A stretch of 64,000 nt of DNA from Escherichia coli (GTDB taxonomy: Bacteria > Pseudomonadota > Gammaproteobacteria > Enterobacterales > Enterobacteriaceae). This document shows, piece by piece, positions 57,547 through 60,567 of the stretch (the stretch's first letter is position 1; each line of letters opens with the position of its first letter). Where the stretch lies: NCBI RefSeq assembly GCF_036507355.1, contig NZ_AP027877.1. One strand, given 5' to 3'. The translations under genes were made by a program, and so were the position numbers. The notes below the pieces were generated by a model. That model saw only the letters and a program-made list of their open reading frames with translations. It was not told where the DNA came from and did not search any database.

Positions 57547-57652
57547 GCCGGATGCGGCGTGAACGCCTTATCCGGCCTACAAGCCTTGCAAATTCAATAA
57601 ATTGTAACGTTCTGTAGGCCGGATAAGATGCGGTCAGCATCGCATCCGGCAA
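57547..57652. repeat. RIP element (REP - IHF-site spacer - REP)
   Basis: GCCGGATGCGGCGTGAACGCCTTATCCGGCCTAC ... GCAAATTCAATAAATTG ... GTAGGCCGGATAAGATGCGGTCAGCATCGCATCCGGCA. Confidence 0.85.
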
Positions 57653-57676: not shown

Positions 57677-58822
57677 CTACTTACTCACCACCAGCAAATG
57701 CGCCTGCATAATGTCGCTGGCCGGGCGACCGTGCGCCAGCAAATCAGCCATTGCTTTAAGATATGGCGGTAGATGGCGGAAATAACGCTGATACCCGGCA
57801 CACAAATAATTCAGCCCCGGTTTGCCGCTGGCATCGAGCATGAAGCGGTGTTTCGGGCAGCCTCCCCAACATGCTTTTAACACGTTACAACTGCGACACT
57901 GCGCCGGTAACTGCTTAAATTTATCTTCACCAAACACCTGCTGTTGCGGGGAATCGATCATTTCTGCAATTGTTTGCTGGTGCATATTCCCCAGTCGATA
58001 TTGCGGATAAACATAGTGATCGCAGGCGTAAACGTCGCCATTGTGCTCAACAATCACCGAGCGCCCACAGGTTGGCTGATGATGGCAAACCGCACCCGGC
58101 GCACCGACAAAATTGGCAAACGCCCATTCGATATTCATCACGAAAATCTTGCCGACGTCGCATTTGATCCAGTGGTCGAATATCGCCACCAGAAATTCAC
58201 CAAATTCATCGGGGCGCACCGACCATTCCGTCAGTTCCCCCTGAATATCACCAGGCGCATGTAGTTTCAGTCCATCGCGGGCAGCTGTTTCATCAGCCAG
58301 GCGCTCGACCACCGGAATAAACTGGATGAATTCGACTCCCGCATCGCACAAAAAATCATATACCTGCAACGGTTGCTGCGCGCTGGTGCGATTAACGCAG
58401 ACCAGCACGTTATAGTCGACATGATGTTTTTGCAGGAACGTCAGGGCACGCATCACCAGCTTATGCGTGGGTCTGCCACCTTTAGTCACGCGATATTGAT
58501 TGTGGATCTCAGCCGGACCATCCAGCGATAACCCAACAAGAAAATGATTTTCTGCCAGAAATGCACACCATTCATCATCGAGCAGCACGCCGTTAGTCTG
58601 GAAGCTGTTACTTATCTTCCTGCCAGCACCATATTTCGCCTGTAGCGCTACGGCACGGCGGTAAAACTCCAGCCCGAGTAGCGTTGGTTCGCCGCCCTGC
58701 CAGGTAAAAGCCACTTCGTTTTGCGGTTCGCTGGCAGCGATATAGTGACGGACATACGCTTCCAGCGTGTCATCGTCCATATGCGTGACTGGCTTTTCGC
58801 GGTAAAGGGATTGTTTTTCGAG
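57677..58822 (-). pseudogene. aslB: Anaerobic sulfatase-maturating enzyme AslB, 3' portion (codon 31 onward), separated from its 5' end by an IS insertion
   Basis: Minus strand reads LEKQSLYREKPVTHMDDDTLEAYVRHYIAASEP... directly abutting the IS end; the radical-SAM CxxxCxxC start of the gene lies on the other side of the IS. Confidence 0.88.
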
Positions 58823-59892
58823 GCTGAATTTACAATCCAAGTGCAACAAAAAAAGAAGTACTCATCAACTAGAATATAATTTTGTTTCCACACAAAAACC
58901 ACTTCCAAATGATGAGTACTTCCTACCGACATCTTACAATAAACGAGCGAGAAAAGATAATGATTTTACTCGCACAGGGCAAAAAACAAGCAGAAATTGC
59001 CAAAGCACTGGGACGTAGCTCCAGCACCATTTCTCGCGAGCTGAAACGACACGCTCTAGAAAGCTACAGTGCAACGAACGCACAAAACAGCTATTTGAAG
59101 CATCGTCAAAATAGCAAAGCACAGCGCAAATTAGAGCAGCCTGAATATTTCAATTTGGTGCAAGAAAAGTTTCTGACAGAAAACTGGTCGCCCGAACAAA
59201 TCAGCGCACGATTAAAATTGGAAAAATCTGAATTATCCATTAGTTATTCAACCATTTATCGTGGTATTTATTCAGGGTTGTTTGATATAGGCGAACGCAA
59301 AGCCAGTCGCAAACTGCGCCACAAAGGCAAAACACGGCATACAAAAAATCATCATGAAAAACGTGGCAAAATTCAGATATCCAACCATTTGAACGACCGT
59401 CCCATTTCGGCGCAAAATCGCAGTCGCTTTGGACATTGGGAAGCCGATACCGTACTGGGTAAAGCGGGTGGAGCTTGTTTGCTGACGCTGACGGAACGCA
59501 AAAGTCGTTTTGAGTTGGTGAAGAAAATTCCTGCCAAAAAAGCCGAAGCAGTCCAAAAAGCCATGATTGAATTGCTGGATTCACATATATTGCGGTCAAT
59601 TACGCCAGACCGTGGTAAAGAATTTGCCCAACATCGTTTGGTAACAGAAGCACTGGGTGTAGAATTTTACTTCCCCGAGCCGCATCAACCGTGGACACGG
59701 GGAACGAATGAAAATACAAATGGGTTACTTCGTGAATACTTTCCGAAGCACCAAGACATCAATCAGTGGAGCGAAGTTGATATTCAACAGGTGATCAATA
59801 AACTGAATTTACGACCACGTAAATGTTTAGGTTGGAAAACACCTTATGAAGTTTACTTCAAAAAATCGTTGCACTTGGTTTGACAATTCAAG
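58823..59892 (+). mobile_element. IS30-family insertion sequence, 1070 bp, ISApl1-like by size and 2-bp target duplication
   Basis: Imperfect terminal inverted repeats (left TGAATTTACAATCCAAGTGCAAC; right revcomp TGAATTGTCAAACCAAGTGCAAC); flanked by AG at 58821-58822 and 59893-59894; removing the element plus one AG restores aslB ...CDYCFYLEKQSLY... Confidence 0.85.
58909..59883 (+). CDS. IS30-family DDE transposase
   Basis: MMSTSYRHLTINEREKIMILLAQGKKQAEIAKALGRSSSTISRELKRH (HTH) ... GHWEADTV ... PWTRGTNENTNGLLREYFPK, typical of IS30-family transposases. Confidence 0.88.
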   Translation: MMSTSYRHLTINEREKIMILLAQGKKQAEIAKALGRSSSTISRELKRHALESYSATNAQNSYLKHRQNSKAQRKLEQPEYFNLVQEKFLTENWSPEQISARLKLEKSELSISYSTIYRGIYSGLFDIGERKASRKLRHKGKTRHTKNHHEKRGKIQISNHLNDRPISAQNRSRFGHWEADTVLGKAGGACLLTLTERKSRFELVKKIPAKKAEAVQKAMIELLDSHILRSITPDRGKEFAQHRLVTEALGVEFYFPEPHQPWTRGTNENTNGLLREYFPKHQDINQWSEVDIQQVINKLNLRPRKCLGWKTPYEVYFKKSLHLV

Positions 59893-59984
59893 AGATAAAA
59901 ACAGTAGTCACAGTTCAGATTACAATCGGAACCGCTCGGTTTCGCCATCACATGAAAAGCACGCGTTGGAACCTGTTGCAGCAT
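59893..59984 (-). pseudogene. aslB: aslB 5' fragment (first ~30 codons) stranded by the IS insertion
   Basis: Minus strand reads MLQQVPTRAFHVMAKPSGSDCNLNCDYCFYL, including the radical-SAM CxxxCxxC motif, then runs into the IS right end. Confidence 0.85.
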
Positions 59985-60094
59985 GGTCGCTCCTTGCCTG
60001 AAGTCATCCTTCAATACGTTAAGGGCGAAATCATACCGTGGGGCAATGAGTTATTACGGGCGTTTATTGCGAAGGGAGGGTGACGAAATGCACA

Positions 60095-60130: not shown

Positions 60131-60207
60131 TGGTCGGCGAGAGAGGATTCGAACCTCCGACCCACTGGTCCCAAACCAGTTGCGCTACCAAGCTGCGCTA
60201 CTCGCCG
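60131..60207 (-). tRNA. proM: tRNA-Pro
   Basis: Minus strand reads CGGCGAGTAGCGCAGCTTGGTAGCGCAACTGGTTTGGGACCAGTGGGTCGGAGGTTCGAATCCTCTCTCGCCGACCA. Confidence 0.95.
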
Positions 60208-60249
60208 AAATACTGCTTTTTGAATTTTTAGTTCAATTCTTTAAAGTCG

Positions 60250-60336
60250 TGGTGCGAGGGGGGGGACTTGAACCCCCACGTCCGTAAGGACACTAACACC
60301 TGAAGCTAGCGCGTCTACCAATTCCGCCACCTTCGC
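60250..60336 (-). tRNA. leuT: tRNA-Leu (long variable arm)
   Basis: Minus strand reads GCGAAGGTGGCGGAATTGGTAGACGCGCTAGCTTCAGGTGTTAGTGTCCTTACGGACGTGGGGGTTCAAGTCCCCCCCCTCGCACCA. Confidence 0.95.
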
Positions 60337-60356
60337 ATTGTCACAACTTCTAATAA

Positions 60357-60433
60357 TGGGGTGGCTAATGGGATTCGAACCCACGACAACTGGAATCACA
60401 ATCCAGGGCTCTACCAACTGAGCTATAGCCACC
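60357..60433 (-). tRNA. hisR: tRNA-His
   Basis: Minus strand reads GGTGGCTATAGCTCAGTTGGTAGAGCCCTGGATTGTGATTCCAGTTGTCGTGGGTTCGAATCCCATTAGCCACCCCA. Confidence 0.95.
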
Positions 60434-60490
60434 ACTACAAATCTTGTTACGCGGTATTACTACCACCGCAGCTCAAGCGCCGGGACTAAA

Positions 60491-60567
<77 letters not shown>

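Follow-up and report, generated by a model that had tools for sequence, protein, structure and literature searches.

An inverted repeat over the transposase start codons of ISApl1 is predicted to fold in long transcripts and probably also provides the body for a small antisense RNA

The window, by which we mean the whole 64-kb stretch of Escherichia coli DNA that was analysed, carries a copy of the IS30-family element ISApl1 within aslB, the two halves of which lie on either side of the insertion. Both ends of the element are flanked by the duplicated target AG (58821–58822 and 59893–59894), and its left boundary was placed by GCTGAATT, a sequence common to the relatives L001–L003 with differing flanks. 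A repeat search detected the terminal repeats as 58812–58847 and 59868–59903; according to the literature, those of ISApl1 are 27 bp long and the target duplication is 2 bp (PMC10916398). By sequence search, the ISApl1 copies on at least 403 plasmids are 100% identical over 1070 bp, and A. pleuropneumoniae AP76 is among those matching at 100% over 1070 bp. The colistin-resistance gene mcr-1 was mobilised by ISApl1 (Tn6330), and the way in which transferable colistin resistance spreads and is fixed is shaped by how active this element is and by its loss.

The transposase, named 'IS30-like element ISApl1 family transposase' in RefSeq, matches the Pfam models HTH_38 from residue 5 (E = 2.7e-16) and rve (E = 1.3e-6; 29.1 bits, under the Pfam cutoff of 32.6). 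By these matches, it has a helix-turn-helix at its N-terminus and a core of the DDE (rve) type, as expected for the IS30 family. A 927-bp coding region has been cited for ISApl1 (PMC10916398); translation would then begin close to an internal ATG at 58960, which the stem described below does not reach. We rejected this position as the main start, as RefSeq uses 58909, HTH_38 begins at residue 5 and an N-terminal M-x-x-Y-x-HLT motif, which in Firmicutes relatives has GGAGG just before it, aligns with the upstream ATG. The coordinates of all features are collected in Table 1.

Table 1. Features of ISApl1 and of its left-end module, with positions in the window.
Feature	Position	Strand	Remark
ISApl1 (IS30 family), 1070 bp	58823–59892	+	Insertion in E. 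coli aslB
IRL (left terminal inverted repeat)	58823–58849	+	Pairs with right end
TACAAT, −10 half of junction promoter	58831–58836	+	Within IRL
A7 tract	58848–58854	.	Adjoins 5′ arm; on the minus strand, U7 directly 3′ of the hairpin
Predicted antisense small RNA, ~70–77 nt	58848–58924	−	Start ~58924; from fold, covariance model and geometry
Upstream (5′) arm, GAAGTACTCATCA	58855–58867	+	Exact reverse complement of 3′ arm; covaries
Predicted antisense stem	58923–58910 paired with 58867–58854	−	Followed by U7 tail, 58854–58848
Predicted −10 TATAAT of the transposase's own promoter (IS10 pIN equivalent)	58875–58880	+	In the loop, between the arms
Predicted native start (~58887–58888) and leader	58887–58908	+	Start 7 nt past the −10; leader C/A-rich, without Shine-Dalgarno
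Transposase gene, 324 aa	58909–59883	+	ORF; RefSeq WP_012478345.1
Tandem ATG ATG, transposase start codons	58909–58914	+	In frame with the 324-aa ORF; RefSeq CDS start
Downstream (3′) arm, TGATGAGTACTTC	58910–58922	+	Exact reverse complement of 5′ arm
Predicted antisense −10 TAAGAT (IS10 pOUT equivalent)	58931–58936	−	Inside His-Leu codons CAT CTT A
Weak candidate antisense −35 TTATCT	58955–58960	−	3/6 matches; 18-bp spacer
IRR (right terminal inverted repeat)	59866–59892	+	Pairs with left end
TTGACA, −35 half of junction promoter	59880–59885	+	Within IRR

The initial annotation had recognised an inverted repeat at this place and had noted that its second arm contains the transposase start codons, an observation borne out by the sequence (ATGATG at 58909–58914, arm at 58910–58922) and by the RefSeq start. 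Its first arm stands as given (58855–58867), while the second, given as 58911–58923, is one base off when read on the sequence, and the end given for the feature, 58917, falls inside this arm and cuts it. The 3′ arm begins at the U of the first AUG and runs through the entire second AUG to 8 nt beyond it, and a repeat search extends the repeat to 31-nt arms that are 74% complementary (58855–58885 and 58892–58922). Chance is excluded as its origin: Markov-1 simulated windows hold on average 0.225 perfect inverted repeats of at least 13 bp with arms at most 120 nt apart per 64 kb, and when the local 140 nt were simulated 4000 times, no 13-mer repeat arose. There is one other repeat of this kind in the window, a REP-like palindrome at 57567–57627.

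A stable structure, on which the initial annotation had made its idea depend, is predicted for the plus strand: RNA spanning 58840–58935 folds with −22.4 kcal/mol (z = −6.5), and 0 of 200 shuffled sequences were equally stable. Opening the region from −12 to +13 around the AUG is computed to cost 17.7–19.8 kcal/mol in transcripts starting at 58609, 58789, 58823, 58843 or 58845, as opposed to 2.2 kcal/mol in transcripts starting at 58886–58890, while native-type RNA (58888–58970) folds with only −2.5 kcal/mol (z = +0.8) and is predicted to be unstructured. The comparison of read-through with native transcripts suggested earlier hence comes out in the direction foreseen, with about 18–20 against about 2 kcal/mol, and in these models the start-region hairpin is stable in long transcripts and absent from native ones. 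An intrinsic terminator on the plus strand was rejected; the stem is followed 3′ of 58922 by CTACCGACATC, in which there is no U-run, and the terminator scan called none.

In order to follow the module through evolution, we compared 38 distinct relatives with 35–82% protein identity, ranging from Pasteurellaceae to gut Firmicutes. These are phylogenetically linked and many come from metagenome-assembled genomes, so that the counts given here overstate the number of independent events. In the alignment of the 38 sequences, T-A-n-A-A-T in the loop and ATGA are the sole invariant columns. The loop hexamer is TATAAT in 23 relatives, TAGAAT in 14 and TAAAAT in one; it lies 0–6 nt 3′ of the end of the 5′ arm in all 38, and the TG at −15/−14 of an extended −10 accompanies it in 29. 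In ISApl1 itself, there is no convincing −35 and no TG at this putative promoter, the consensus promoter scan did not call the site, and a TAGAAT at 58870–58875 overlaps the −10. With this invariant −10 between the arms, which the initial annotation had overlooked, the element's own mRNA is predicted to begin near 58888 and not to include the upstream arm, and this is why native transcripts would escape the stem and read-through transcripts would not. The leader that follows contains a motif, ACCACACAA, that is conserved in the relatives. The scan did call a plus-strand CTTACA-17-GATAAT within the coding region, which we discarded since it is not conserved in the relatives.

In all 38 relatives, the Shine-Dalgarno/AUG region pairs with sequence immediately 5′ of the −10 in the loop, over a mean of 16 bp and with a mean of −19 kcal/mol (z from −3.1 to −9.0 versus shuffled upstream arms). 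The changes are compensatory, as exemplified by GAAGTACTCAT/ATGAGTACTTC versus GAAGTGTTCAT/ATGAACACTTC. In the aligned plus-strand helix 77.6% of the cells are paired, compared with 27–35% when the arms are slid; 9 of its 13 pairs have changed on both sides, and equally good shuffles were found in 0 of 500. As far as computation goes, the sequestration of the start codons in read-through transcripts that had been proposed initially is therefore upheld by the stable stem, the opening cost and the conserved pairing. As an account of what the stem is aimed at, read-through is incomplete, for the minus strand shows features of an RNA-OUT-like antisense gene.

The minus-strand RNA of ISApl1 folds with −32.2 kcal/mol (z = −7.9), and across the relatives 94.2% of the cells of the minus-strand helix are paired (equally good shuffles, 0 of 500). 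The predicted antisense start falls on nucleotides 1–3 of the stem in 38/38 relatives, and in 36/38 a T-rich tail (at least 5 T in 8) comes after the minus-strand stem; the terminator scan called no terminator here, and the 42-nt interior of the hairpin is atypical for an intrinsic one. When both predicted starts are used, the mRNA and the antisense RNA would overlap by 32–42 nt (median 37), with the ribosome-binding site included. CATCTTA, which carries the predicted antisense −10, is invariant at synonymous sites in all 38 relatives, while CTT makes up 18% of the Leu codons elsewhere in the same ORFs; likewise, the Thr codon at this place is ACC in 30 of 37, against 12% of the Thr codons elsewhere. 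A minus-strand −35 with at least 4/6 matches at 17 bp is found in 29 of the 38 relatives and a TG in 32. Firmicutes relatives have TAGACA or TATACA as antisense −35 at 17 bp together with a TG extended −10, which by sequence makes for a strong antisense promoter (TAGACA-17-TGnTAAGAT), and in the relative L040 the promoter scan calls TAGACA-17-TAAGAT with TG. In ISApl1, the −35 has only 3/6 matches with an 18-bp spacer and no TG, and the consensus scan of the left end did not call an antisense promoter; this candidate −35 is the weakest part of the antisense case in ISApl1 itself.

A covariance model, R1, matches the minus strand of ISApl1 at 58842–58918. In 66 of 80 loci it likewise has a minus-strand match where the transposase gene begins; about 28 of these loci are outside its training set, and several other IS30-family relatives were missed. 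By this sequence evidence the module is confined to one clade of the family, with carriers in Pasteurellaceae, Moraxella, enterococci, lactobacilli and many gut Clostridia and Bacilli. Rfam searches of the window and of 8 relatives gave no match at or above the gathering score of a family, and we dismissed the sub-threshold minus-strand matches to Ms_IGR-7 (26.7 of 45 bits) and mir-513 as generic hairpin matches. The resemblance to RNA-OUT thus appears to be mechanistic only, homology to RNA-OUT or to a curated family being unsupported by these searches. Taken together, these features make it probable that the repeat is the body of a small antisense RNA in ISApl1. The literature lends this indirect support: in S. 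pneumoniae, candidate antisense sRNAs have been reported at the 5′ end of transposase genes of the ISL3 or IS30 family (PMC11601373), and gut metatranscriptomes show an enrichment of antisense transcription at transposase genes of the IS30 family (PMC4555090).

The substitutions that depart from Watson-Crick pairing fit the minus strand slightly better. Over the nine shared pairs, the minus strand has 17 broken cells and the plus strand 29, G·U pairs number 32 on the minus versus 17 on the plus strand, and the minus-strand fold is lower in energy than the plus-strand fold in 29 of the 38 relatives. This pattern is suggestive only, because few events underlie it, these are linked by phylogeny, and a strand rich in G and U folds better in any case; as the asymmetry is small, we set aside G·U versus A·C substitutions as a way of assigning the strand. 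Still, together with the minus-strand features the wobble pattern means that protection from read-through cannot, on its own, take the credit for the selection of the stem.

Transcripts may also reach the module from the joined ends of the element. When the ends of ISApl1 meet with the 2-bp spacer known from their junctions (PMC6349718, PMC10916398), the two promoter halves come to lie 7 + 2 + 8 = 17 bp apart and give a near-consensus promoter, TTGACA-N17-TACAAT. TAnAnT is conserved at the IRL position in all relatives, and those relatives with a right end recovered all have TTGACA (TTGATA in L007) equally far from the tip. By sequence, ISApl1 therefore has a predicted junction promoter as in circle-forming insertion sequences. 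The arrangement of a right-end −35 and a left-end −10 joined by a short spacer is that of the Pjunc of IS30, IS911 and IS2; what differs in ISApl1 is that the junction start, at about 58843, would lie upstream of the 5′ arm. Junction transcripts are accordingly among those predicted to be translationally closed, and the division drawn in the initial annotation between read-through and native transcripts is too simple. A junction promoter has been stated for ISApl1 in general terms, and the usual view is that such a promoter boosts transposase synthesis (PMC5821093). The predicted silencing conflicts with this view and the conflict is unexplained; we found no published discussion of it in the literature searched. 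We see a small chance that, in this clade of IS30-family elements, the junction promoter yields no translatable transposase mRNA at all and that its transcripts serve as a decoy for the antisense RNA, de-repressing the native mRNA only for as long as a circle or tandem junction exists. Such transcripts could titrate or occlude the antisense RNA because they are complementary to all of it and convergently transcribed, and the result, if true, would be an RNA switch by which the supply of transposase is tied to the transposition intermediate being formed.

On balance, we lean towards reading the repeat as a conserved hairpin module of about 70 nt, arranged like the pIN/pOUT region of IS10, that would act through both strands by fold-back and antisense. 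A weak promoter of the element, with its −10 at 58875–58880 between the arms, would give rise to native mRNA from near 58888, without the upstream arm and with a leader that is C/A-rich and open. Transcripts starting farther upstream would carry both arms and have their AUGAUG buried; this fold-back inhibition would reach read-through from host DNA as well as junction-promoter transcripts of circles and tandem dimers. On the minus strand, the −10 TAAGAT (58936 to 58931) would set the start of an RNA to about 58924, right at the foot of the stem, and termination would come from the hairpin with U7 (58854–58848). The resulting antisense RNA of about 70–77 nt would be complementary to roughly the first 37 nt of the native mRNA, start codons included, and would block ribosome binding in trans in the manner of RNA-OUT, which would make the inhibition dependent on copy number. 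What the analysis establishes is the repeat with its computed stability, conservation and covariation, together with the geometry and the invariant hexamers; we infer both start sites, the termination, the existence of the antisense RNA and the effect on translation from the sequence. The weakness by consensus of both promoters in ISApl1 itself counts against this explanation, and so do the atypical interior of the hairpin and the conflict over the junction promoter.

It is rather unlikely, in our estimate, that the stem works by cis fold-back only, silencing incoming plus-strand transcripts, with the minus-strand features being relics or the result of coding constraint. The poor antisense promoter of ISApl1 (3/6, 18-bp spacer, no TG) speaks for such a restricted role, as do the way in which any transcript with the upstream arm buries the start codons and the escape that the invariant loop −10 offers to native transcripts; yet CATCTTA, frozen at synonymous sites in 38/38 relatives, would be left unexplained and the A-tract adjoining the 5′ arm (the T-rich minus-strand tail of 36/38) unaccounted for. 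Moreover, the helix ends on its outer side where the minus-strand RNA is predicted to start and not at a fixed distance from the AUG, and plus-strand A·C mismatches, which are G·U on the minus strand, outnumber plus-strand G·U pairs.

Conversely, the repeat may have been selected as the stem and terminator of an antisense RNA only, the plus-strand fold-back being a by-product without a role, which we regard as improbable. The helix boundaries do agree with the predicted start and the U-tail, the nine shared pairs are broken less often on the minus strand (17 cells versus 29), and the minus-strand fold is the more stable one in ISApl1 (−32.2 versus −22.4 kcal/mol) as in 29/38 relatives, although G/U-rich minus strands fold better by composition alone. 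Since the 3′ arm always lies over the Shine-Dalgarno sequence and/or the AUG, a plus-strand transcript with both arms must fold, and a by-product so strong, with 18–20 kcal/mol needed to open it, cannot be neutral. In addition, IS10, the model system, is said to use both mechanisms.

Only a slim chance is given to a constitutive leader hairpin of the IS200 type, in which the real promoter would lie upstream of the 5′ arm (for example, the TACAAT of IRL with a chance −35 in flanking DNA) and every mRNA would be poorly translated. IS200 itself uses constitutive sequestration (PMC4513863), the conserved C/A-rich stretch of the loop could be a ribosome toehold as suggested for IS200, and the loop −10 of ISApl1 is without a −35 and was missed by the promoter scan. 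Against this stands TAnAAT as the sole invariant non-coding feature of 38 diverged leaders, with a TG extended −10 in 29/38 and a position 0–6 nt past the 5′ arm in all of them that is hard to explain unless a promoter fires downstream. A DNA-level feature (a split site for the transposase or a host protein such as HU, or a cruciform) or chance, with no role for RNA, is most improbable: HU and the transposase do bind the left-end region of ISApl1, but the binding required IRL itself and maps to this 27-bp repeat and not to 58855–58922 (PMC10916398), the simulations exclude chance, and the arm sequences vary among relatives while their complementarity is kept, which is the signature of a base-paired nucleic acid and not of a protein recognition sequence.

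IS10/Tn10, like ISApl1, has an inverted repeat at the 5′ end of its transposase gene, and its transposase promoter lies inside the antisense gene, as predicted here. Davis, Simons and Kleckner (1985) reportedly found that the outside transcripts of IS10 hold both repeat halves and bury the start codon, and that the element uses both fold-back and antisense. The IS10 antisense RNA of about 70 nt is essentially one stem-loop, and the same is predicted for ISApl1; in both cases the overlap with the mRNA 5′ end covers the ribosome-binding site, over 35 nt in IS10 and a predicted median of 37 nt here. The published figures for IS10 are a 35-nt mRNA overlap and a 69-nt RNA-OUT, and pIN mutations destabilise RNA-OUT (PMC5006887). 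On the other hand, the transposases are unrelated (IS4 family versus IS30 family), IS10 moves by cut-and-paste whereas ISApl1 uses copy-out-paste-in with circles, and the two modules have no sequence or Rfam relationship. The promoter region of ISApl1 also differs in having no Dam (GATC) site, its split junction promoter with hairpin-bearing transcripts has no IS10 counterpart, and, unlike the well-studied IS10, the ISApl1 module is known here only from computation.

The left end of IS200 (tnpA leader stem-loop and the antisense sRNA art200) resembles that of ISApl1 in that an inverted repeat sequesters translation signals and a C/A-rich single-stranded stretch lies 5′ of the start (PMC4513863). 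In IS200, a separate terminator hairpin blocks impinging transcription, and repression is constitutive because both arms lie within the native 5′ UTR, whereas in ISApl1 an invariant −10 lies between the arms and the native mRNA is predicted to escape. Within the IS30 family, IS30 proper carries an additional N-terminal domain, and its leader is different. RNA-C of IS30 (Arini, Keller and Arber 1997) is, in the accounts of it given by two later sources, an antisense RNA that lowers transposase translation (PMC8450116, PMC11601373); on these accounts it shares both the family and the effect with the antisense RNA predicted for ISApl1, and the module described here differs from it in sitting on the start codon and in being found in one clade.

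The searchable literature on ISApl1 regulation covers the transposase and HU at IRL and a generic junction promoter, and RNA-level control is absent from it. In the literature searched, we came upon no account of a hairpin, a start site or an antisense RNA in ISApl1, and no transcript, start-site or reporter data on the proposed module. If the favoured reading is true, neighbouring transcription would be kept from driving ISApl1 expression, an insulation of the element, the presumed role of the junction promoter would need another look, and the control logic of IS10 would have evolved convergently in an unrelated transposase family. As the module is common to a large clade, results on one element would inform many. 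ISApl1 would also be under copy-number-dependent antisense inhibition, which is relevant to many-copy strains; the E. coli strain 17MR471 has 14 matching places.

The inverted repeat is located at the left end of an ISApl1 copy that interrupts aslB, a gene coded on the minus strand. Its N-terminal fragment lies to the right of the IS and the rest to the left, with an AG target duplication, and the break falls between the CxxxCxxC-motif N terminus and the remainder of the gene. Among 5,426 complete E. coli genomes, this aslB insertion was found only in 17MR471, the strain in which PMC10916398 studied the ISApl1 mechanism; the window and 17MR471 are identical across the IS but differ at 18 flanking positions. 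Just past the aslB start, four tRNA genes are clustered on the minus strand (Pro-TGG, Leu-CAG, His-GTG and Arg-CCG; 60131-60567), followed by the thrP (yifK) transporter gene. The arms of the repeat are exactly complementary, as the initial annotation had stated, while its second arm had been placed one base too far right. When the whole 64-kb window was screened for perfect repeats of 13 bp or more whose arms lie no further than 120 nt apart, just one other turned up, a REP-like palindrome; the mean in simulated windows is 0.225, and 0 of 4000 local simulations yielded such a repeat. The repeat is no chance feature, and plus-strand RNA of the region has a stable predicted structure (-22.4 kcal/mol, z = -6.5). 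The other perfect repeat (57567-57627; 15-bp arms, CTTATCCGGCCTACA and its complement) sits in the intergenic region of the convergent genes aslA and aslB and resembles a REP element.

Features of the ISApl1 left end and its surroundings, with the pairing arms of three relatives (L004-L006)
Feature	Position	Strand	Sequence or basis
ISApl1 insertion sequence, 1070 bp	58823-59892	+	100% identical to copies on mcr-1 and Pasteurellaceae plasmids
aslB flanks of insertion	57677-58822 and 59893-60014	-	anaerobic sulfatase maturase gene
Transposase ORF, 324 aa	58909-59883	+	HTH_38 plus sub-threshold rve match; same start in RefSeq
Tandem start codons of transposase	58909-58914	+	sequence
Exact inverted-repeat arms	58855-58867; 58910-58922	+	GAAGTACTCATCA; TGATGAGTACTTC (sequence)
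ISApl1 arms			upstream GAAGTACTCAT; at start codon ATGAGTACTTC
L004 arms			upstream GAAGTGTTCAT; at start codon ATGAACACTTC
L005 arms			upstream GTGTTCAT; at start codon ATGAACAC
L006 arms			upstream CTCATAAT; at start codon ATTATGAG
Loop hexamer TATAAT in ISApl1	58875-58880	+	invariant T-A-n-A-A-T column
U7 tail in ISApl1	58854-58848	-	sequence
Predicted antisense RNA in ISApl1	~58924 to ~58848	-	-10/stem/U-tail geometry
Junction promoter -35 TTGACA	59880-59885	+	right end
Junction promoter -10 TACAAT	58831-58836	+	left end

A single scan of representative genomes recovered 80 loci that code for related transposases (35-100% identity); they derive from Actinobacillus, Aggregatibacter, Moraxella, enterococci, lactobacilli and staphylococci, along with numerous Clostridia and Bacilli assemblies from the gut. 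In their leaders we observed that complementarity is kept while the arm sequences differ; among Firmicutes relatives, GGAGG and the AUG both pair with the upstream arm, over 15-20 bp. The best duplex formed by the start region with the segment lying 5' of the loop hexamer has a mean of 16 bp and -19 kcal/mol over 38 distinct leaders, with z-scores of -3.1 to -9.0 when compared to shuffled upstream arms. When these leaders were aligned with MAFFT, 77.6% of the helix cells were paired in the ISApl1 register, versus 27-35% with the partner slid; both-side changes occur in 9 of 13 helix pairs and the covariation was matched by 0 of 500 shuffles, but because the relatives share phylogenetic history and many of them are bins from metagenomes, these counts do not amount to independent events.

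The only invariant columns of this alignment are ATGA at the start and a T-A-n-A-A-T hexamer between the arms. The hexamer reads TATAAT in 23, TAGAAT in 14 and TAAAAT in 1 of the 38 sequences, follows the end of the upstream arm by 0-6 nt, and in 29 of them has TG ahead of it at -15/-14. On its simplest reading it would be the -10 of the element's own promoter, promoters being assessed here by consensus and conservation only; no recognisable -35 was found for it in ISApl1, and a consensus promoter scan made no call there. With the hexamer as -10, the native mRNA would start about 7 nt downstream (~58887-58888), in the loop and without the upstream arm. In folding predictions, transcripts that start at 58609, 58789, 58823, 58843 or 58845 require 17.7-19.8 kcal/mol to open the region from -12 to +13 around the AUG, versus 2.2 kcal/mol for starts at 58886-58890, and the RNA 58888-58970 is nearly unstructured (-2.5 kcal/mol, z = +0.8). 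This comparison, which the initial annotation had called for, supports its proposal that the start codon could be sequestered in read-through transcripts, and predicts it to be accessible in those from the native start.

The start choice matters because the stem holds the upstream start only. A 927-bp ISApl1 coding region, cited in PMC10916398, would put the start close to the internal ATG at 58960; we rejected that as the main start, as RefSeq and the conserved N-terminal motif place the start at 58909 (975 bp including the stop). No Shine-Dalgarno sequence precedes the start codon in ISApl1 and its Gram-negative relatives (CCACTTCCAAATG, 58888-58908), unlike in Firmicutes relatives, whose leaders carry GGAGG. 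Close to the predicted 5' end of the mRNA, both groups share the C/A-rich motif ACCACACAA, which would double as the apical loop of a predicted antisense RNA.

Since the minus-strand fold is better than the plus-strand fold in 29 of the 38 leaders, the minus strand was examined. The His-Leu codons of the N-terminal His-Leu-Thr (HLT) motif read CAT CTT A in 38/38, where CTT makes up just 18% of the Leu codons in the rest of those ORFs; for the Thr codon that comes next, ACC is used in 30 of 37 (12% elsewhere). On the minus strand these codons read TGG-TAAGAT, a putative extended -10. In 29 of 38, a putative -35 (TAGACA or TATACA) is present 17 bp upstream on that strand; Cys-Leu or Cys-Ile codons make it up, among them a rare CTA that is fixed. 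An independent promoter scan called TAGACA-17-TAAGAT with TG in one relative (L040). ISApl1 itself has a poor antisense -35 (TTATCT, with an 18-bp spacer and no TG), which makes the antisense half less certain here than for the Firmicutes relatives. A start 7 nt past the antisense -10 would coincide with nt 1-3 of the stem in all 38 leaders, even though the distance from the AUG varies by group; with three extra codons before HLT, the ISApl1 stem reaches correspondingly further into the gene. At the other end, an A-tract always adjoins the upstream arm, giving on the minus strand a U-tract directly after the hairpin (five or more T in 8 positions, seen in 36 of 38 relatives), where we infer termination. 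The antisense RNA that these features predict for ISApl1 has a computed fold of -32.2 kcal/mol (z = -7.9), and the predicted overlap between mRNA and antisense RNA is 32-42 nt (median 37).

In the minus-strand alignment, 94.2% of helix cells are paired, versus 29-43% when slid. For the nine pairs that the two alignments have in common, broken cells number 17 for the minus strand and 29 for the plus strand, and several plus-strand A.C mismatches are G.U pairs on the minus strand, a strand assignment by wobble pairs that involves few events. A covariance model (R1) built from the minus-strand alignment matched the transposase 5' end at 66 of the 80 loci, ~28 of them outside its building set, and once in the window (58842-58918). 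Among the 80 loci, it found no match in the staphylococcal, some enterococcal and the Chloroflexi relatives, and therefore the module belongs to a clade and not to the whole IS30 family. Weaker plus-strand R1 matches (31-39 versus ~63-74 bits) in eight relatives (L058, L051, L049, L071, L077, L050, L063 and L080), offset ~17 nt to the right of the minus-strand matches, probably reflect the near-palindromic hairpin. In two Staphylococcus relatives (L011 and L012, ~40% identity), which retain CATCTTAC in the HLT codons and are without an R1 match, another upstream segment, ATTGGCACT, pairs with AGTGCCAAT directly 5' of the ATG, overlapping the Shine-Dalgarno; these elements may carry a diverged form of the device.

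Fold-back combined with antisense control is classic for IS10, whose outside transcripts, as Davis, Simons and Kleckner reportedly described in 1985, fold back via the inverted repeat of its own control region. The control region predicted here resembles that of IS10 in that the transposase promoter lies within the antisense gene, the antisense RNA (~70 nt) consists essentially of a single stem-loop, and the two RNAs share a ~35-nt overlap over the translation initiation region (PMC5006887). This layout leads us to propose a two-function module for ISApl1, for which the present analysis, all of it computational, establishes the repeat, its covariation, the invariant hexamers, the geometry and the predicted energetics. 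As to expression, we infer that plus-strand transcripts starting upstream of 58855 would be silenced in cis by fold-back, and that an RNA-OUT-like antisense RNA would inhibit in trans. Related devices are carried by IS200 (PMC4513863); the IS30 antisense RNA, cited in PMC8450116 and PMC11601373, is not at the start codon. In Rfam, no family scored above its gathering cutoff for the window or for 8 relatives, and the searchable ISApl1 literature makes no mention of the hairpin, the start site or an antisense RNA. Antisense transcription at IS30-family transposase genes has indirect support in pneumococcal sRNA screens (PMC11601373) and in gut metatranscriptomes (PMC4555090). The proposed control is of a known kind, here in an element of clinical importance and in a large clade.

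All relatives with a recovered right end carry TTGACA in that end (TTGATA in L007) and TAnAnT in the left end; each motif keeps a constant distance from its tip in relatives ranging from Pasteurellaceae to Clostridia, and it is precisely at the TTGACA/TACAAT bases that the two terminal repeats show systematic differences. When the ISApl1 ends are joined through the 2 bp that PMC6349718 and PMC10916398 report as spacer in its circles and dimers, the result is TTGACA-N17-TACAAT, a junction promoter of the type generally assumed to drive transposase synthesis (PMC5821093). Its predicted start (~58843) is 12 nt upstream of the 5' arm, and therefore junction transcripts are predicted by folding to be as closed as read-through ones. 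We found no discussion in the literature of this conflict between hairpin and junction promoter, for which several outcomes can be envisaged: little of the transposase may come from the junction promoter, the effect of the hairpin may be only to damp that promoter's output, or junction transcripts may serve another role, such as titrating the antisense RNA.
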